A stretch of DNA of 64,000 bases from Escherichia phage vB_EcoM_005: the sequence record MK295203; one strand, given 5' to 3'. The position numbers were made by a program, and so were the translations under genes. A model generated the notes under the pieces. That model was not told the DNA's origin, did not search any database, and was given only the letters and a program-made list of their open reading frames with translations. This document shows positions 33-51,107 of this stretch, piece after piece. Numbering within the stretch: the stretch's first letter is position 1; the number at the start of each line of letters is the position of its first letter.

Positions 33-444
33 ATGAAAGAAATCGCAGACGAATTTAGCTTTATCAAGTACGTCACCCTAGAACTCCAAGATGACGCCAC
101 CATAGCTCCGCTCACAGTACCAAATAAACAAAATGTCATATATGCTATAGCGGTTGATGATATACTAGTCTACATCGGGAAGACTAAAAATCTTCGTAAG
201 CGCATCAACTTACTACCGAACCGCTATTAATCGTAAGGACCAAACGTCGGATTCGACCAAGTCCATTCTGATTCATGAAGCATTAATGGCAGGTAAAAAG
301 GTAGAGTTCTATGCACGGCAGTGCTTTAATCTGTCGATGACTAACGAACTTGGAACTATGTCAGTCGAGACCATGTCTCTTGAAGAGCCAATGTTCATAA
401 AGAAATTTAATCCACCTTGGAATACCCAACACCGTGCCAAATGA
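33..444 (+). pseudogene. denA: Endonuclease II (DenA, GIY-YIG family) with apparent +1 frameshift
   Basis: N-terminal MKEIADEFSFIKY...VIYAIAVDDILVYIGKTKNLRKRIN matches DenA; the track ORF stops at 230 (INLLPNRY*), while the conserved C-terminus (TAINRKDQTSDSTKS...FYARQCFNLSMTNELGT...FNPPWN) continues in the +1 frame to a stop near 442-444. One extra T near 213 explains it. Confidence 0.7.
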
Positions 445-1091
445 AGAAACATTACATATACAAAATTACAGTCATGGAAGGCCCATTTAAAGACCACTAT
501 TATATAGGTAAAAGGTCTAACGAGGACCCTGAAAATGACATTTATAGCGGTAGTGGTGTAAAACTACCGTATATAAAAAGAAATTTTAGATTTATTAAGG
601 AAATTTTATCATTTCATTCGGATGAACAAGAAGCTTATGATAAAGAAAAGGAATTGGTATGTTATGAGGCCTTAATGGACCTATATTGTTTAAATGTTGT
701 TCTTGGAGGCAGGGGTCATAAAACCGGTGATAAATTATCGCAATGGTATTTTTATGATGAGCTTTTTGAATTATGGGTAAATAACGGTCTATTAGGATAC
801 GGAAGATTTGGGCGATTGGCGGTTTCATTAGGATATCCTAATGAGCATTACGGAGGCCTTATAGCGGCCTTTGAAAAAAATTCAGGATTAAAAGCAAATT
901 CTAATACCAAAACCCTAGGAGTTCCTTCTTCCAAGCGTAAGGAACATTGGCTTTACGAAAAGGAGCTTTTCGAACATTGGGTTAAAATGGGCCGATGCGG
1001 TCATAGAACCTTTAAACGCAAGATGGTAGCTTTAAATTATCCTGATGTATCCTATTATCAAATGGTTGAAAATTTTAAGGTAAAGCAATGA
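441..1091 (+). CDS. GIY-YIG homing endonuclease (Seg-like), freestanding between denA and rnlA
   Basis: MKKHYIYKIT...YYIGKRS...YSGSG GIY-YIG motif at N-terminus; ATGA overlaps with the denA stop and the rnlA start; T4 has no gene at this position. Confidence 0.8.
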   Translation: MKKHYIYKITVMEGPFKDHYYIGKRSNEDPENDIYSGSGVKLPYIKRNFRFIKEILSFHSDEQEAYDKEKELVCYEALMDLYCLNVVLGGRGHKTGDKLSQWYFYDELFELWVNNGLLGYGRFGRLAVSLGYPNEHYGGLIAAFEKNSGLKANSNTKTLGVPSSKRKEHWLYEKELFEHWVKMGRCGHRTFKRKMVALNYPDVSYYQMVENFKVKQ

Positions 1092-3011: not shown

Positions 3012-3199
3012 TTAAATTATCTGTAGTAGTATTATCTATTGGCTTGTTAGTTGGATGTGCCCAGGACATCCCTGTAGTGCCTAAGCAACAACTACATCCT
3101 TCATGGCCACAACCTATTGCCAAACATAATGTTAAATGGCAGGTTAAGGTAATCGATGGTAAAGCTTGGGTTGGAATGCCATTTGAAGATTCCGAATGA
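3008..3199 (+). CDS. Small predicted lipoprotein (pseT.2-like)
   Basis: 63 aa; signal peptide with lipobox LVGC (MIKLSVVVLSIGLLVGCAQ). Confidence 0.55.
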   Translation: MIKLSVVVLSIGLLVGCAQDIPVVPKQQLHPSWPQPIAKHNVKWQVKVIDGKAWVGMPFEDSE

Positions 3200-32679: not shown

Positions 32680-33339
32680 ATGAATTATTTAATTTACAAA
32701 ATAACCAATCTCATTAATAACAAGATTTATGTTGGAGCCCATGCCACTACAGATGTTAACGATTCTTATATGGGTTCTGGGGTTAACATAGTAAAATCCA
32801 TAAAGAAGCACGGTTTAGAGAATTTTAAAAAGGAAATCCTTTTCAATTTCGAAACACCTGAAGAGATGTATGCTAAGGAAGCCGAACTAGTTGATGAGGC
32901 TTTTGTCATGAGAACAGATACTTATAATGCTGCCTTAGGCGGTAAGGGTAATCCTGTTATAGTAGCTTTACAGGAACCCGGGTATCGTGAGATGTTATCC
33001 GAAAAGACCAAGGCCGGTATGACCAAGGAAGTAAGGGCCAAAATGTCTAAATCGAAAACAGGTTCTAAAGAATCCAAAGAGCACCGAGAAAACAAATCTA
33101 TAGCTAATAAAAAGTTTTACGAGAATAGGGATTCTCATCTTAAAGGTAGGAAACTATCAGAAGAACATAAAGCCAAAATTAGAAAGAATTCTAATAAAGG
33201 TAAGAAATTCGTATTTGTGGATATTTCTATTAAAGGTCATGAATTTAGCCATTACGATTACGCTGCCGAATTCTTTAACGTATCCGCAAAAACTATAAGA
33301 AATTGGATTAATGAACGCGATGATTGTTTTAAGCTATAG
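32680..33339 (+). CDS. segD: GIY-YIG homing endonuclease (SegD-like, between 24 and 23)
   Basis: MNYLIYKITNLINNKIYVGAH... GIY-YIG motif; same intergenic position as T4 segD. Confidence 0.8.
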   Translation: MNYLIYKITNLINNKIYVGAHATTDVNDSYMGSGVNIVKSIKKHGLENFKKEILFNFETPEEMYAKEAELVDEAFVMRTDTYNAALGGKGNPVIVALQEPGYREMLSEKTKAGMTKEVRAKMSKSKTGSKESKEHRENKSIANKKFYENRDSHLKGRKLSEEHKAKIRKNSNKGKKFVFVDISIKGHEFSHYDYAAEFFNVSAKTIRNWINERDDCFKL

Positions 33340-38557: not shown

Positions 38558-39139
38558 TCATTCATTTTCATGTTTGTGATAACGTGTTATAGCCGAACGA
38601 GTTGATTCAACACCACAGATAGGGCAAATCATCCTTGGCTGATTAATCTTTTTGCCTTTAGCCGGATGTTCTTTACCAAACATCGGATTACCTTCACCAG
38701 ACATAGCTTTGGCTTGGTCTGGTCGCTTACGTCCTTTTAGAGCTTTAGAATGTTCAGGCCTCTTTTTACCTAACCTACAATCTCTTTGTAGCTGTTTGGC
38801 ATGTTCACTCATTGGAATCCCTTTACGAGACATTCCAAAGAACCCGTCAGGCTGAGCTAATGACATATTTATATAGTTTTTAGATTTAACTACATTATAC
38901 TTTATTTGAAGCTCTTTCTCAGCTATACGAGCTTCTTTATCGGTTTCAAATAAAGATAAAATTCTGGTTTTGAAAAGGTGCGGATTTTCTTTACGTTCTA
39001 GATTCCAAATCTTTTTATATGCTTGGGATAATACAGAACCATTATATCCTTCTTTGAGAATCCTTTCAACGTATGTTGAGCCAATATAACGACGGGGTAG
39101 TTTAGACCCCGTGTATATGGTTAAGTAAGTACAATACAT
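38558..39139 (-). CDS. GIY-YIG-type homing endonuclease (Seg-like) between genes 19 and 20
   Basis: YLTIYTGSKLPRRYIGST GIY-YIG-like N-terminus; repeated GKKRPEHSKALKGRKRP basic (NUMOD3-like) repeats; C-terminal CPICG zinc finger; T4 has no gene here. Confidence 0.7.
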   Translation of the reverse strand: MYCTYLTIYTGSKLPRRYIGSTYVERILKEGYNGSVLSQAYKKIWNLERKENPHLFKTRILSLFETDKEARIAEKELQIKYNVVKSKNYINMSLAQPDGFFGMSRKGIPMSEHAKQLQRDCRLGKKRPEHSKALKGRKRPDQAKAMSGEGNPMFGKEHPAKGKKINQPRMICPICGVESTRSAITRYHKHENE

Positions 39140-39701: not shown

Positions 39702-40385
39702 TTAGTGTTTCCTATCATATTCTTCAATTAAATGGAATAGCATATCTAAATCTATACTATTTTTAGAATCTTTACTTCGATTCTTTTCCCAAGGAATCAT
39801 TTCTAGATTGCAAATGTGTCCTATTATTTCGGGAGGGACGCCATTTTCAAATCCATATTTGATAGATACCCTATGGTCTAATTGATAAGCTCCTTTAACA
39901 CCACATATCCCGCTTAGATGTCTATTTGGTAGATTATCAACTTCTTCTTTAAAAGTCTTATTAGTAAAAGACCTCACTGAATAATAATATTTATTACGTT
40001 CAGATTTGTTAGGATTCCATCTTCCGTTTTTAGGTCCTGAACAAGCTTCAATCTTTATACCTTTTTTAGACTTAGAAATTTTAGGCCCTTTGGTTTTACG
40101 GATTTTTATGCCTTCATCAGAATTCCAATATTCTTTTCTTGTTTCTGAATAGACTTCCCAACGATGCTCTTTACAGAACTTAGAATTGGTTTCATTAAGT
40201 CGCCCTTTTGTTACAGTATAATAAATGCCACATTTATCACATTTACACGTAACAGCCATTTTTCCAGGACAGTCTTCTAATTTTATTAAATGGGAGCTTC
40301 CACTTTTAACTTGATATCCAAGATTTTTAAAAGCAGAAACATTGCGATTCGTTATAGGTATTTCAAATAGAGTATTAGTAATCAT
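39702..40385 (-). CDS. HNH homing endonuclease between genes 18 and 19
   Basis: YQLDHRVSIKYG...GHICNLEMIPWEKNRSK HNH (His-Me finger) motif; N-terminal CKCDKCG...CKEH zinc finger; T4 genes 18 and 19 are adjacent. Confidence 0.75.
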   Translation of the reverse strand: MITNTLFEIPITNRNVSAFKNLGYQVKSGSSHLIKLEDCPGKMAVTCKCDKCGIYYTVTKGRLNETNSKFCKEHRWEVYSETRKEYWNSDEGIKIRKTKGPKISKSKKGIKIEACSGPKNGRWNPNKSERNKYYYSVRSFTNKTFKEEVDNLPNRHLSGICGVKGAYQLDHRVSIKYGFENGVPPEIIGHICNLEMIPWEKNRSKDSKNSIDLDMLFHLIEEYDRKH

Positions 40386-44741: not shown

Positions 44742-44745
<4 letters not shown>

Positions 44746-45608
44746 GGGTTTCTCCTTGGTGCTGGAGGCGCTGGCTCGACAGGCACTGGAATATCTTGTG
44801 AATATGTTTGAACGGAACTTCCATCCCATTCTGTTTGTTCTACACCTCTCGGAACCACTTCGCTATCAACCGATTCGAAATTACCTTCAGGAGCGAGTTC
44901 CTTTGAGTTAGCAAAGAAATCAAGATAAATGGTTTTAATTTCGCCTTCCATTTCTTTAACTGGAGGATATAACCACCCGTTAACCTCAAACATCATGGAC
45001 CATTCTAAACGACGACGAGAAGTGGTATCGCCTTCTAATTGTTCGTCCATTGCAATAGACTGGAACACAATACGAATATCACGGTCAAATTTAATCTCGT
45101 TTGTATAGAGTTCAGTGATTGTTGTATTAAAGTGAGGTTGGAAATAAGGCATAATCTGTTCCACAATTTGGAACATATCATCTTGGGTTCTAGTGTAAAT
45201 ACCCAGTTCGAAAATCATTTTAACCGGAGTAGGAGAATATTGGCTAACCCGTTTACGAGGGTCACCATTCTCAAATTGAATTTGTGTTCTGTTCTGAAGA
45301 GCTGTTTTGTATTGTGAGTTATAAAGCATATCAACCATTTGAAGGTTCATACGTGGAAGAACTGTTTCCACTTTAGCCTTTTGTTCAGCTCGTTCTTTAG
45401 GAGACGTATTGGGATTTGGAATATTCTGTACTGCCGTCCATTTGCCCAAATTTGCCATAAATCTTTCTTTAGAAGCATACGTGATAGGAACCTTAATAAA
45501 TTTAAGCCCTGTATCTTCTCTTTGACGTGCTACTTGAACATGGGAAAATAAATCACCCATCAAAACAATATAGCGACGTAGCGAACTATTATAAAAGTGA
45601 CCGAACAT
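44742..45608 (-). CDS. 15: Tail sheath stabilizer / tail completion protein gp15
   Basis: 288 aa (T4 272 aa); synteny. Confidence 0.8.
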
Positions 45609-46195
45609 TACTCACCTCTCATTTTACAATTATCATTATGCCAACGATTTATAAGATGGTATCCTATCATCTTGTGGCAATGTGGACACTCTACTTTTCT
45701 CTTTGGTACACCTGTTTGGGCTTGTCCAAAGGATACGGTATGTTCTGCTGAAAGCTTTTTGCCTTTGTGGGTTTCACTGGCTCTCTTTTTAGCATACTCT
45801 CCGTGATGTTTACCAAAAAATGGATTCAATTCACCTATACGAGTTTTACCCCAGGCTGATTTAACCCTCTTCATTTCTATACGGGCTTCTTCGTATTTTA
45901 TTTTTAATTCTTCTTCGGATAAATTTAAATTTCTACGTTCAGAACTACTAAACATAATCCAAAAGGCTAAAATCATTTTAGGGTCTTTTGTTTTTGCTAA
46001 GATTGCATGCGCCTCTAGATGGTCTAAAACATCTATAGAAACTATATTTTCCGGCGTGTTTTCGTATTCTGGAAATAAAGACCTAGGGAGAATATGATGT
46101 TTTTCGGTGTATTCTGTTTTAGGTGGCTTGGAGACCACCGCCAGATATTCATCTGTCAAATCCCCAAGCCATAATCCTACTTTTTCTTCTATCAT
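45608..46195 (-). CDS. HNH homing endonuclease (Mob-like) between genes 14 and 15
   Basis: HHILPRSLFPEYENTPENIVSIDVLDHLEAH HNH motif; C-terminal CPHCH...C zinc finger. Confidence 0.75.
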   Translation of the reverse strand: MIEEKVGLWLGDLTDEYLAVVSKPPKTEYTEKHHILPRSLFPEYENTPENIVSIDVLDHLEAHAILAKTKDPKMILAFWIMFSSSERRNLNLSEEELKIKYEEARIEMKRVKSAWGKTRIGELNPFFGKHHGEYAKKRASETHKGKKLSAEHTVSFGQAQTGVPKRKVECPHCHKMIGYHLINRWHNDNCKMRGE

Positions 46196-46204
46196 AGAAG
46201 TTAT

Positions 46205-46908
46205 TTAATCATCTAAAAAAGCATCATCAAATGCTGTAGGAGGAGCATCTTCTCCTCGTCCATTAATTACAACATAAGGATGTACGAATTCAGCCGCTTC
46301 GGCATTAATCTCATTGACCTCTTCGTATTGAATGTCGGAGATATCAGCCAACCCGTCGATATTCTTAACAGGCATTAAATCAAGCTCACTGAATTCAGGA
46401 ATATTAATACCTTCATTTCTCTGTAATTCAGGACGAAGTTCTTCACCATTGTAAATGAACTTGGTAGCGGTAATTCGACGCTGGACGTTAGCACCTACTT
46501 GATAGAATGGGTCGTAAGGTTGTACCCAGTTAATTTCGAATAGGCTTATTATCCATTGGGAAATAAATCAAGTCGCCTGAAACAGGTTCAGTGCCATTGC
46601 ATTGATGTTTAAAAAGGTTAGGGTTAATTGTGATTGTTACTTCATCATTAACCATCATACCGAACTTACTGAAAGCCTATTCGGTCATTGGCATTTAACA
46701 TATTCACGTGGTATATAATAAAGCTCAATACCACGCATTTGAATAGACTCAGCAACTAAAGCATCAGCCAATGTTTGGGTATTCTCATGCTTGTAATGGT
46801 CGCCATTGGGTCATTGACAAAGGGATTGAGAATTTCGGCTTCGTTCGTATTAGCGTAACCTGTATTATTTTCTAGTTTGGCGAAAAGACTAGAATCAAAT
46901 GTCGACAT
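46205..46908 (-). pseudogene. 14: Neck protein gp14, multiply frame-disrupted
   Basis: Track ORF stops after [36 protein letters not shown]; conserved segments ([34 protein letters not shown]; [41 protein letters not shown]; [32 protein letters not shown]...FLDD*) continue in three different frames. Confidence 0.7.
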
Positions 46909-47521
46909 AACTCCACTCCTTCCATTTAGGTTTATCATTCTTTATTCTATTAATAACTGCGCTTTTGACTATACCAAAATACTCGGCGCATTCTTTACCT
47001 GTCGAGAATACCATTTCTCCGACTCTAACTGCTCTGGCCGCAGGATTTTTACTACCGGTAAAATCTGGGTGTTTCACACGCGTCCACATTAATGCGGTAG
47101 ATTCTTTTCTACGCTTTAGCCCTTCTTCAGTCCATTCTCTTGATTTTGCCGCCTCTGACATTCTTTTTCTTGATTCTATAGAACGGGTTTTACCTATATT
47201 AGGGTTATCTTTAGGATTGTAATAAGAAGGACCACCTTGTCCTCCTTTTACCAAATTAACACACTGAGCAAAATCTTCTTTAAGAATATCGACTAAAAGT
47301 TCTTCGGCTTCCTTTAATAATTCCGGATTACCGAAATCTTTCGACCATAATACCTGTTTTATACAGTTTCGTCCATATTTTTTCTTAGCATTCGAAATAT
47401 ACGTTCCTGAGCCAACGTATGAATCCAGCTTTGGATTAGATTTATCCGAATGTCTTTTACCGCCATAAATTTTTAATCCGTCCGACGTTTCAAACTCAGT
47501 CACGTATAATCTATAAAACAT
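46895..47521 (-). CDS. GIY-YIG homing endonuclease (Seg-like) inserted at the 13/14 junction
   Basis: [24 protein letters not shown]...YVGSG GIY-YIG motif; C-terminal HTH; track ORF 46895..47668 is fused in frame to a duplicated gene-14 N-terminal fragment. Confidence 0.75.
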
Positions 47522-47715
47522 AATTATCCAATTAAAATAGGTGTTGGTGGGTCGAGTAAATCTAATTCGAAAGTTGACGAAAGGGTTCATTATTTCAGTT
47601 TCGTTCGTGTTAGCATAGCCAGTATTATCTTCTAGCTTAGCGAATAAACTCGAATCGAAAGTAGCCATAATTATCCAATTAAAATAGGTGTTGGTGGGTC
47701 GAGTAAATCTAATTC
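47520..47715. repeat. Two exact 50-bp direct repeats flanking a duplicated gene-14 5' fragment
   Basis: CATAATTATCCAATTAAAATAGGTGTTGGTGGGTCGAGTAAATCTAATTC at ~47520-47569 and ~47666-47715; the 96 bp between encodes [32 protein letters not shown]. Confidence 0.75.
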
Positions 47716-48839
47716 CTCGCGAAGTCGTTCTTTTTCTAAACGAGCTTCTTCAATCAATCGAATAGCCATCTACAGTGGTTCCACCTGCAAGTTGCATGCC
47801 TTGGTGTTTGGCTAAAATATTACCATTGACCTCTTTAACCAGTGCCGTAGCATAATCTTTAACCCAACGGTTATTATATGCACCAGTCTTGAAGACCAAG
47901 GTCCTCACCTACACGCATACCAGAAATACGACGTGATGGATTATCCCAAACAGCTCCAGGGCTCCATTCATTTTCGTCACACCCACCAGAGGCATATCCA
48001 TATCCTGCAGTATTTCCTACCATAGAATCAACCCCATTAAAAGAGCGAGTATAAACTTCAATTACAATAAAATCACCTTTAACAAAGTTACCCATTACCT
48101 TCAACTGTTCAGTGGCATCGTTATACCAATAATCAGGCAACAAAATATTACCATTGACTTCTTTAACCAATGCCGTCGCATAATCTTTGACCCAACGGTT
48201 ATTATATGAACCATCTTGCAAACCAAGGTCTTCACCTGCCCTCATACCTGAAATACGACGAGCCGGGTTATCCCAAATAGCTCCGGGGCTCCATTCATTT
48301 TCGTCACACCCACCAGAGGCATATCCATATCCTGCAGTATTTCCTACCATAGAATCAACCCCATTAAAAGTGGAACCAAAAGGTCTTGCATCATAGAACG
48401 ATATTGCATTAATTGTGTAAAATAACCAAGGTCGGCACCGAAGGCATTAGGCCCAAAGCTGTTACAAGAAGGTTCCAAGACCACCATTAATACCGGCCAA
48501 GCCTAATACAAAATCAGTAAACCATGGATAAGTCGCTTGGCCATCCATAGATGTTAAAGAACCCACGTTGGTTCTCAAAATTTGTGTTACCGCAAATATA
48601 TTACGGCCTTTAAGGTCAAATACACCGTTACGGAATTTTTCTTCGTCATCATGGCCTATATAAAAAGCCTGATAACCTTTGTTATAGCCGTTATAATGAT
48701 ACTCACCGTAGAGCTCCAGTGCGCGCTGGATGCAATCGTATACTTGGTCTGTAGTTACTTCAATATTTGTAATCGGTGCACCCAGGCGGCGCAGGATTGC
48801 GTCCTTGAGTTGCTTAGGGTTATATGATTCACTTGCCAT
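47672..48839 (-). pseudogene. 13: Neck protein gp13 with internal tandem duplication, in-frame stops and frameshifts
   Basis: N-terminal 125 aa (track ORF 48462..48839) match T4 gp13, then two in-frame stops; track ORF 47874..48350 holds [43 protein letters not shown] twice, 107 codons apart; C-terminus ...[28 protein letters not shown] is in another frame. Confidence 0.65.
47815..48365. repeat. Tandem duplication (~230 bp units, ~320 bp period, ~90% identity) inside gene 13
   Basis: AAAATATTACCATTGAC.TCTTTAACCA.TGCCGT.GCATAATCTTT... at ~47815 and again at ~48135. Confidence 0.7.
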
Positions 48840-48876: not shown

Positions 48877-48895
48877 GGGCCGAAGCCCTTTTATT
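48877..48895. terminator. Bidirectional terminator downstream of wac
   Basis: AAAAAAGGGCCGAAGCCCTTTTATT. Confidence 0.65.
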
Positions 48896-51107
48896 ATGGT
48901 GTTGGGGTTAAAGTCACAAAATCTGACAATAATACCCATGCATTATCAACAAGAACATACGGAAGTCCATCAGCAACTGGAGCCGCTGGCGGACGTTTAC
49001 CAAGTTCAGTTTCTAGTGCAGTGATTTTAGCTTCGGCTGCAGTTAAACGAGTAGTTAATCCTGCCACTTTACCTGATTCAACTTCAACAACACCTAAACG
49101 GGTATCAATAGCCGCTACTTTATCGGATTCACCCTTAACTTCAGCCAATCCAGATTTAAGTGTTACTATATCACCTTCTGCAGTGCCAAGGCGGGTATTA
49201 ATACCTGCTACCTTATCAGATTCGACTTTAACAGCGGCAAGTCCTGTTTCTAAAGTGGTGATTTTACCTTCTGCTGTAGTAACTCTAGTTGTTAAAGGAG
49301 CAATTTTGGCAGTATCAACTTTAATTGCGTTAATTTCACCTTCAGTAGAAGAAACTCGGCCAGTTAAAGAAACGATATCGCCTTTGTTCTTGGTGATATC
49401 CGCTTTAATAGGGGTCAACTGGTTTTCTAAATCGGTTACATCTAAAGCCAGTGCAGTAACATCGTCATCAGTAGTATCTGTCTTAGTTTCAAGAGCAGCA
49501 ATTTTACCGTTAATGGTTACATCACTAGATTCAAGTGCTGTTAAACGACCGTCCTGTTCAACGTCTTTAGCCTTTATAGTAACGATATCTGCTTTAATCT
49601 CACCAACCGAAGTGTTTAATGCACCGGTACGAGTATCAAGAGAAGAAATTGAGGTATCATTATCATCGACTCTAGAAGTTAAAGCGGCCACTTTACCGTT
49701 GGTAACAACCAAATCAGCCTTAACAGATTCTATTTCCGTAGAGCTATTGAGAACCTCTGTCCAAGTAGCATTGCGGCGTGCATAAAGCTTACCATCGGAA
49801 GGGGCATCATTCAACTTACCTAACATCTGGGTTTCTAAAGAAGTAACCGCGTTAATAAGACCACGTTCTTCTACAGTAGTACCGTTAGGGTTGGTCCCGT
49901 CAACCTTATTGGTGAGTTTAAGTAAAGTACCCTTAATACCGGATTGGTTATTTCCAATTTCTACTTGAATATCCTGGATAGATGAAGTAGATTGGTTTGC
50001 TTGGATAATAACGTCATTTAAACGCTTATTAATGGTCCCAGCTGCCGGAGATACTTCACTACCTAAACGGCGGTTGATATCAGTAACTTGGAAACGTAAG
50101 CCATCACTTGAACTAACACCCACTATGGTTTTAAGGTCATTTACATCGGTGCGAAGACCGCTTAAACGTCCATTAATAGAAGTAGGAGTTGATTCAGAAC
50201 CTATTTGGATTTCAATTGATGTTACACGAGGTTTTAAATCAACGTTGACTGAATTTTCTAGGGTAAGAGTTTTGCTTTCTAAAGTAGTTACTCGGTCCTT
50301 TATAGGCATACCGGAGAAATCAATATTGGTCTTAATTTCGTCGATAGACGTATTAAAATTAATTGCCGCCGTTTCTAATGCTGAAATTCGGGTATAAGCA
50401 GGTTGTTTACCTACCGTATCAGAATGCGGGCCAAGTTCAGCACGAATTTCATTTAATTTAATACCTAATTGCCCGACGTCAGAATCTTCATAATTCCTTT
50501 CAAGGGTATCAATGCGAAGACGATGGTCGACCAATTCAGTGGTATTATCAATGATGCGACGTTTCATACCGGTGGCTTCGCTGGTTTCACCTGGAGGCAA
50601 TGGATTGCCATTTATATCCTGGTTTTCATAATGACCTATTTCGGTTTTAAGAAGAACAATATTTTCACGTACAGTTAAATATGGGCCATCTTGTAAAGGG
50701 TCATGGTAACCAACGTCTTCACGCAAGTAATCAAAATTGGTGGTTAACTCATCCAATTTTCCTGTTGTTTCTGAAGTAACCTTTTTAAGGTCTACGATAT
50801 CAACACGGTTTTTCTCAATTTGTTGGATGACGGAAATATCCGTAGCCATTTCTAAGGCATCATTGATATTATTAACGTTTTCTACCAGTTCGTTAACTTT
50901 ATCTGCGGTTTTCAAATCATTCGCATCAAGAGCTTCAACGTTTTTCTGAACTCCTAAAGCAGCAGCGTTCAAATTACCTTCATTGCCGTATTTTGTTTTT
51001 GCTGCAGACATACAATCACCCTCGCGTATCCATTGGATACGCTTTTGAGGAGCATCAGGTACGCCGTCAACAAATGGTAACTCACTAAGTTCCAATTTGT
51101 TAATCAT
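48894..51107 (-). CDS. wac: Fibritin (Wac), long coiled coil with C-terminal foldon-like domain
   Basis: 737 aa (T4 487 aa); heptad-rich; C-terminus DGLPYVLVDNAWVLLSDF resembles the T4 foldon. Confidence 0.85.
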   Translation of the reverse strand: MINKLELSELPFVDGVPDAPQKRIQWIREGDCMSAAKTKYGNEGNLNAAALGVQKNVEALDANDLKTADKVNELVENVNNINDALEMATDISVIQQIEKNRVDIVDLKKVTSETTGKLDELTTNFDYLREDVGYHDPLQDGPYLTVRENIVLLKTEIGHYENQDINGNPLPPGETSEATGMKRRIIDNTTELVDHRLRIDTLERNYEDSDVGQLGIKLNEIRAELGPHSDTVGKQPAYTRISALETAAINFNTSIDEIKTNIDFSGMPIKDRVTTLESKTLTLENSVNVDLKPRVTSIEIQIGSESTPTSINGRLSGLRTDVNDLKTIVGVSSSDGLRFQVTDINRRLGSEVSPAAGTINKRLNDVIIQANQSTSSIQDIQVEIGNNQSGIKGTLLKLTNKVDGTNPNGTTVEERGLINAVTSLETQMLGKLNDAPSDGKLYARRNATWTEVLNSSTEIESVKADLVVTNGKVAALTSRVDDNDTSISSLDTRTGALNTSVGEIKADIVTIKAKDVEQDGRLTALESSDVTINGKIAALETKTDTTDDDVTALALDVTDLENQLTPIKADITKNKGDIVSLTGRVSSTEGEINAIKVDTAKIAPLTTRVTTAEGKITTLETGLAAVKVESDKVAGINTRLGTAEGDIVTLKSGLAEVKGESDKVAAIDTRLGVVEVESGKVAGLTTRLTAAEAKITALETELGKRPPAAPVADGLPYVLVDNAWVLLSDFVTLTPTP

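Follow-up and report, generated by a model that had tools for sequence, protein, structure and literature searches.

How did the neck-gene locus of Escherichia phage vB_EcoM_005 come to hold an endonuclease gene set among repeats and between two broken structural genes? The stretch of DNA analysed here, 64,000 nucleotides (nt) of sequence record MK295203 (hereafter, the window), contains at positions 46205-48839 the two neck-protein genes 14 and 13, and between them an open reading frame (ORF) that resembles the Seg endonucleases of phage T4. A first-pass annotation had offered two explanations: a homing or recombination scar frozen in mid-conversion, or a chimeric assembly of endonuclease-plus and endonuclease-minus variants. 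Our comparisons favour the second. It is quite probable, judging from the sequence, that the locus is a chimeric, low-quality assembly, which interleaves two variants of a single phage type, seg-plus and seg-minus. In it, the alleles of two variants, called A and B below, stand in series at the two most divergent stretches, and no repeats are found on the six contigs that carry the same seg gene.

The window belongs to a JS98-like T4-type phage of the genus Dhakavirus, and is 92-98% identical over its full length to phages MX01, KIT01, Bp7, IME08 and others. The genes of the locus are all encoded on the minus strand. Gene 13 (neck protein, head-tail adaptor) occupies 47671-48839, as placed by tblastn and alignments; the Seg-like ORF, intact and 208 amino acids (aa) long, occupies 46895-47521; gene 14 (neck protein, head closure) occupies 46205-46908, its 5' end represents the seg-plus (A) allele, and the tblastn match of MX01 gp14 is split between frames. 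The locus measures 2635 nt, versus 2325 nt in MX01, and the excess of 310 nt is fully itemised as +147, +230, +14, +4 and -85.

The repeats noticed at first reading are real features of the record. Self-comparison of the window finds two exact 50-nt direct copies at 47519-47568 and 47666-47715, and each copy, designated U, consists of the final 45 nt of gene 13, which end in its stop codon, followed by 2 nt of spacer and an ATG. The ATG was said to be shared between seg and gene 14, and this holds: in the first copy it starts seg, and in the second it starts a B-type fragment of gene 14. The first copy, made of the end of gene 13 and the seg ATG, is identical in MX01, KIT01, FB and the Logan contig L012. 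Between the two copies are 97 nt (47569-47665), which do represent, as proposed, a diverged second version of the 32-codon N-terminus of gene 14; codons 1-32 in this tract differ from those at 46813-46908 in 23 of 96 nt and in 4 of 32 aa. The doubled unit is 147 nt, or 49 codons, long, so that the B-type fragment of gene 14 continues across the repeat into seg in the same frame, and a fusion ORF of 257 aa results (46895-47668, minus strand). No other repeat of this kind was found across the 64 kb, where self-comparison brings up only the paralogues of alt and a single intergenic segment that is repeated. The repeats at this locus are not due to chance.

What these repeats consist of became clear when the locus was split at its junctions and each piece was compared with MX01, FB, KIT01 and six Logan contigs. 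The block at 46815-47568 (minus strand), which comprises codons 1-32 of gene 14 in the A form (14N_A), seg, and the terminal 50 nt of the gene-13 region, is a seg-plus haplotype, 100% identical to MX01 and L012 over 754 nt. The neighbouring tract at 47569-47665 (minus strand; 14N_B) is a seg-minus allele of gene-14 codons 1-32/33. It matches seg-free phages only, is colinear with the 13/14 junction of KIT01 and of the Logan contig L008, and in the seg-free phages is contiguous with gene 13; its peptide is 100% identical to gp14 of IME08, AnYang and IME341. On one side, U ends at the seg/no-seg difference, and on the other at a C/T difference; the "repeat" is simply the stretch that is common to both allele sets.

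A second pair of alleles is found within gene 13, where a segment X of 230 nt is present twice. The copy at 47814-48043 (X_B; minus strand) is a divergent B allele with 90-91% identity to every relative compared. The other copy, at 48141-48370 (X_A; minus strand), is the common A allele, 99.1% identical to L012 and 98.3% to MX01, and has been inserted 97 nt away from its proper place. The first-pass annotation had described this as an in-frame tandem duplication of about 321 bp at about 90% identity, accompanied by stops and frameshifts. The extra DNA, the stops and the frameshifts are there; the full in-frame tandem unit is not. The insert of 230 nt copies 47814-48043 at 92% identity with a spacing of 327-328 nt, and the remaining 97 nt of the 327-nt unit occur once only. 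Since 230 cannot be divided evenly by 3, the reading frame is lost at the 5' junction of the insert. Gene 13 also contains single-nucleotide insertions at 48471, 47886 and 47765.

Read along the plus strand, the order of the pieces is gene-14 body, [14N_A + seg], U, [14N_B], U, 13a, [X_B], Y, [X_A], rest of gene 13. The single-copy pieces 13a (47716-47813), Y (48044-48140) and 46695-46795 are 97-99% identical to all relatives; as the alleles sort by haplotype while these spacers do not, the segments that are doubled are the most divergent ones. Within each pair, the differences are for the most part synonymous: 18 of the 23 nt differences between 14N_A and 14N_B, and 12 of the 19 that separate X_A from X_B over 230 nt (4 of 76 aa changed), fall at third codon positions. 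Such differences are what selection leaves between natural alleles, and each pair is made up of two alleles, not of a sequence and its copy.

Gene 14 had been predicted to need at least three frame changes in order to be read, and alignment with MX01, FB and KIT01 locates three lesions, with stops seen in three-frame translation. There is a 1-nt insertion (T on the plus strand) at 46546. At 46675-46694, a 20-nt filler replaces 105 nt that are kept in all relatives, for a net loss of 85 nt, and this lesion resembles the deletions found throughout the window (see below). At 46796-46814, a 19-nt filler takes the place of 5 nt, for a net gain of 14, at codons 32/33, the point at which the A-type tract joins downstream sequence that is shared. 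Neither of the two fillers is found elsewhere within the window; a possible 11-nt inverted match of filler sequence to 46538-46548 was noted by eye. Anomalies also mark other joins of the locus, in the form of filler or missing sequence at 47569-47570 and 48370/48371 (97 nt absent at the latter).

Placement of both alleles of a divergent region one after another on a single scaffold is the signature of false heterotype duplication (Ko et al. 2022, PMC9516828). The resemblance is close in several respects. In both situations there are two distinct alleles with allele-specific sequence, placed adjacently at the most divergent stretches of the haplotypes; the junctions between the copies are anomalous, and the duplication is not seen in independent assemblies. 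The difference is that the phenomenon was described in diploid eukaryotes, whereas here there would be two co-occurring phage variants, and the likeness is one of sequence.

If the same kind of error is at work here, the sequenced DNA would have held at least two variants of a JS98-like phage. Variant A would carry the known Seg-like gene between genes 13 and 14, in local sequence like that of MX01 and L012; variant B would have no endonuclease gene, and would have its own alleles of gene-14 codons 1-32 and of segment X. Stretches in which A and B were nearly identical would have been collapsed into one, and where they differed strongly both alleles would have been kept and placed end to end. 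In this way the 50-nt repeats would arise, as would the diverged N-terminal copy of gene 14 and the doubled segment of gene 13. Construction faults of the same kind would have damaged the whole window, leaving losses of a fixed size of 99 nt and single G or T fillers. We infer that variants with the two alleles co-occurred in one sample, and that a step of the software joined them.

Sequences obtained independently support an undisturbed arrangement. The identical Seg protein is found on six independent contigs, i.e., MX01 and five Logan assemblies from different runs, and none of the six has the repeats. Wherever a contig reaches far enough, the flanking genes are full-length (gene 13 of 310-311 aa on three contigs, gene 14 of 257 or 267 aa on five). 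The Logan contig L007 has an intact order 13-seg-14-HNH-15, which is the arrangement of the window minus its anomalies, and the true locus is almost certainly of this plain form. Among 1464 T4-like phage records with the gene-14 N-terminus, one only has a second copy (1465 places in all). Neither the junction sequences nor a 27-mer specific to the B allele were found in the viral, genome or metagenome contig collections searched, and an exact-product search of public assemblies gave no product corresponding to the 257-aa fusion ORF.

Could the structure nevertheless be an actual aberrant product of homing, upon which unrelated technical lesions were superimposed later? Under this scenario, Seg would have cleaved gene 14 of a genome lacking seg near codon 33; repair of one end would have copied a seg-plus donor through seg and into the end of gene 13, and the other end would have been joined without homology, leaving a true duplication of 147 nt and, in addition, a second rearrangement in gene 13. 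Several features are of the expected kind. Both junctions of gene 14 fall on one and the same codon, at the border of the highly diverged tract beside the endonuclease gene, the gene-14 fragment is in frame with seg, and the stretch of 100% identity to MX01 and L012 has the look of a co-conversion tract. Seg-type enzymes are described (PMC2330249) as driving the transfer of their own gene together with flanking sequence. Yet neither homology nor microhomology is seen at 47568/47571, 48140/48141 or 48370/48371. The 230-nt insert is by itself enough to frameshift the essential gene 13, and gene 14 is broken three times, so a genome with both neck genes destroyed in this way could not propagate. 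The structure is missing from the six contigs with the same seg and is found in no independent sequence, and the surrounding sequence, with about 24 fixed-size deletions in other essential genes of the window, is demonstrably unreliable. We conclude that the scar proposed at first reading is not supported, and regard an aberrant homing product as very unlikely. The chance is slimmer still that the duplication is real in the stronger sense of a packaged or replicating recombinant, in which repair of the Seg break was half homologous and half illegitimate. If it were, pre- and post-homing alleles would be frozen in one molecule, and the cleavage site of Seg would be marked at about codon 33 of gene 14.

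The state of the remaining window bears on this choice. When MX01 proteins were compared with the window by tblastn, gaps or truncations of 33 residues were seen in gp5, 6, 8, 9, 11, 12, 18, 22, 23, 25, 28, 54, Alt, Cd and others, so that most essential structural genes compared are affected. At the DNA level, there are 16 sites with a loss of exactly 99 nt and eight sites with losses of 85-173 nt, with the same sizes and positions whether MX01 or KIT01 serves as the reference. The exact losses are at 3194, 6871, 10476, 17411, 18295, 21780, 24722, 35003, 51202, 51464, 53018, 55299, 55985, 59472, 63005 and 63230; the others are at 2061, 9992, 33527, 41414, 46684, 52591, 59276 and 62240. No microhomology was seen at the edges of the deletions. 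Ten sites have a single base in place of 100 nt, and these ten fillers, together with five uncompensated 1-nt insertions in coding sequence, are G or T on the plus strand in 15 of 15 cases (probability of about 3e-5). A phage with gaps of 99 nt in most of the genes for its baseplate, tail and head could not be viable, and the signature is technical.

The lesions are not spread evenly. Their density at 46.5-48.5 kb is about ten times the mean of the window, and this stretch also has four of the five uncompensated 1-nt insertions in coding sequence, a concentration that fits the place of the structural difference between the two variants. The fifth, at position ~210, is the only such insertion outside genes 13 and 14; it frameshifts the homologue of MX01 ORF226 "endonuclease" (33-441, plus strand), which in MX01 is adjacent to nrdB. 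Sequencing error of the homopolymer type was considered for the 1-nt insertions and rejected, as most of them are outside runs and small indels are rare elsewhere.

The many interrupted genes across the window, and the clustering of frameshifts in genes 13 and 14, may also recall genuinely decaying or defective DNA, such as a non-viable genome or a relic in an environmental sample, in which the two neck genes would be pseudogenes. Sixteen deletions of exactly 99 nt and fillers of G or T only do not constitute a mutational spectrum, and the substitutions fit purifying selection, as in gp17, which has 99.8% aa identity at about 97% nt identity. T4-type phages, moreover, are strictly lytic and leave no resident copies, which likewise argues against decay. 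We consider this explanation extremely unlikely.

Corruption or splicing after assembly, through record processing, the handling of scaffold gaps or manual stitching of contigs, has more to recommend it, and is unlikely rather than negligible. The replacement of 100 nt by one base is an operation of fixed size; the strand-specific G/T fillers are such as would come from a converted placeholder character, and the ends of the fragments abut without trimming of overlaps. The fragments of the second allele are natural sequence, which means that genuine data from a second variant must have been there in any case. Loss of text lines of fixed width, as in a FASTA file, is excluded, as the positions of the deletions are not congruent modulo 100. 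Corruption of this sort is inseparable from an error of the assembler or scaffolder in the present analysis, and the practical verdict on the record is the same.

As to the fixed size itself, our guess is that 99 nt stands for 2k-1 with k=50, and that the larger losses are 99 nt plus a short distance. A dropped bubble caused by a single-nucleotide polymorphism (2k-1, k=50) was tried as the source of the 99-nt losses and was not upheld, as differences between MX01 and KIT01 are not enriched at the centres of the lost blocks or inside them. Switching of the nearest relative at the deletion junctions showed no clear pattern.

A chimeric assembly of two variants thus remains the preferred account, and several points weigh against it. 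In a simple de Bruijn graph, no legal path leads from U to 14N_B. The exact losses of 99 nt and the G/T fillers are left without explanation by the model. Both gene-14 junctions, at 46796-46814 and at 47568/47571, are at codon 32/33, which is also what a double-strand break at that place predicts, and the preservation of frame between the gene-14 fragment and seg by the 147-nt unit has to be put down to a coincidence of one in three. Finally, there are no other unrolled allele pairs in the window, so that the second variant is visible at this locus only.

The endonuclease gene itself is no part of the artefact. A Seg-like gene, probably of the GIY-YIG type, does interrupt the 13/14 junction, as had been reported; the insertion is real, and annotations of it already exist for MX01 and numerous further T4-like phages. 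The ORF and MX01 ORF161, a "putative endonuclease" (NC_031934, 92888-93514) located between the neck genes of that phage, are 100% identical. Homologues with 55-62% identity adjoin the neck-protein gene in many T4-like phages of Escherichia, Shigella, Yersinia and Klebsiella, where the annotations given are homing, GIY-YIG or segC-like endonuclease. Assignment to the family is also supported by profile matches to phrog_314 "homing endonuclease" (9e-33) and, under the model cut-off of 56 bits, to TIGR01453 (1e-8, 35.5 bits). A C-terminal DNA-binding region similar to that of I-TevI, of the NUMOD3/helix-turn-helix kind, is indicated by matches to NUMOD3 (20.8 bits, cut-off 20.4) and to PF20987 (I-TevI_DNA-bd; E=3.3e-5, 24.1 bits, slightly below the cut-off of 27). 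Alignment of the four phrog_314 paralogues of the window reveals invariant Y3 and Y6 (GIY), Y19-x-G21 (YIG) and E71/E73. The Pfam GIY-YIG model PF01541 gave no match to the ORF even at E<=10, a sequence search of PDB gave none either, and no relatives of the protein were found in IMG/VR. An AlphaFold model built from an alignment of four sequences had a pLDDT (predicted local distance difference test) of 39.8 and was unusable.

MX01 provides the closest known counterpart, with the identical 208-aa protein in the identical 754-nt block and at the same insertion point, at which seg takes the position of the gene-14 ATG and gene 14 restarts inside the 3' end of seg. Unlike MX01, which has a single intact copy of each flank, the window has in addition the fragment of the seg-free allele and the extra segment of gene 13. 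SegA-G of T4 are free-standing GIY-YIG homing endonucleases, which promote preferential inheritance of their own genes and flanks. The ORF at 13/14 is similar to them in being free-standing between conserved genes, in its variable presence among close relatives, in its I-TevI-like DNA-binding tail with NUMOD3, and in having a flank that is strongly diverged between seg-plus and seg-minus forms (76% against 98-100% nearby). Among colinear relatives, seg is present in MX01 and in the Logan contigs L007, L010 and L012-L014, and is not present in KIT01, L008, JS98 and many others. To our knowledge, T4 itself is without a seg gene at 13/14, going by the established T4 map, and a literature search for seg described at this junction returned general papers on Seg only.

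The diverged flank deserves a closer look. Over the first 96 nt of gene 14, seg-plus and seg-minus phages are 76% identical, their proteins are nearly identical, and identity on both sides is 98-100%. This is the pattern to be expected if the target of the endonuclease lies there and the seg-plus allele is immune to cleavage. The block of 100% identity to MX01 and L012 would then likely be a co-conversion tract, which fits the known biology of Seg and is not new. In phage FB (L002, 3274-3918), an unrelated endonuclease of the HNH type, matching phrog_655 and annotated as hypothetical, occupies the same 13/14 junction, and the 5' end of FB gene 14 is likewise strongly diverged. With unrelated endonucleases at one and the same site, the 13/14 junction is a recurrent landing site, used by two unrelated families.

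The interval from gene 15 (44742-45608, minus strand) to wac, which encodes fibritin (48894-51107, minus strand), had been described as holding genes 14 and 13 with the Seg-like ORF between them in about 2.6 kb. This inventory is right as far as it goes, but it omits an HNH/mob-like gene between genes 14 and 15. The omitted ORF, at 45608-46195 (minus strand), is intact, 195 aa long, and matches phrog_655 (7e-39); it is annotated as "mob-like endonuclease" in KIT01, and the identical protein is encoded on the Logan contigs L007 and L008. It is a neighbour of the artefact and not part of it.

Three further phrog_314 ORFs are found in the window, at 417-1091 (plus strand), 32680-33339 (plus) and 38558-39139 (minus), of which the first adjoins rnlA, the second lies between gp24 and gp23, in a segD-like position, and the third separates gp20 from gp19. 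Free-standing ORFs that resemble homing endonucleases are unusually numerous in the structural-gene region of this phage. Another ORF, of 227 aa (39702-40385, minus strand; phrog_5104, function unassigned), is located between gp19 and gp18, and is not seen at that position in MX01 or KIT01. The wac product has 737 aa in the window, 720 aa in MX01 and 529 aa in KIT01 and FB, and wac has internal repeats with a spacing of 93-144 nt at 49001-49324; the differences in size are natural length variation of the coiled coil. Among the matches of the gp14 search was PQ561418.1 (phage Ec2-ASingh), an unannotated, partial, Dhakavirus-like record, which is not identical to the window (no 100% DNA match).

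The main value of these results is a warning. With about 24 fixed-size deletions and two unrolled allele pairs, the window is unfit for claims about gene content, frameshifts or duplications. The biology that underlies the locus is already known: a Seg-like gene at the 13/14 junction, an HNH-type gene next door, and a strongly diverged start of gene 14 beside the insertion. There is also a milder version of the homing story, more likely than a real duplication although on balance less likely than not, namely that the structure is an artefact that nevertheless points to a natural population with coexisting seg-plus and seg-minus forms of a single phage; the converted tract would then extend roughly over 46815-48370. 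If both alleles did come from one sample, they would represent a natural seg-plus/seg-minus polymorphism with a mapped co-conversion tract, which would be modestly useful for the study of homing in T4-like phages.

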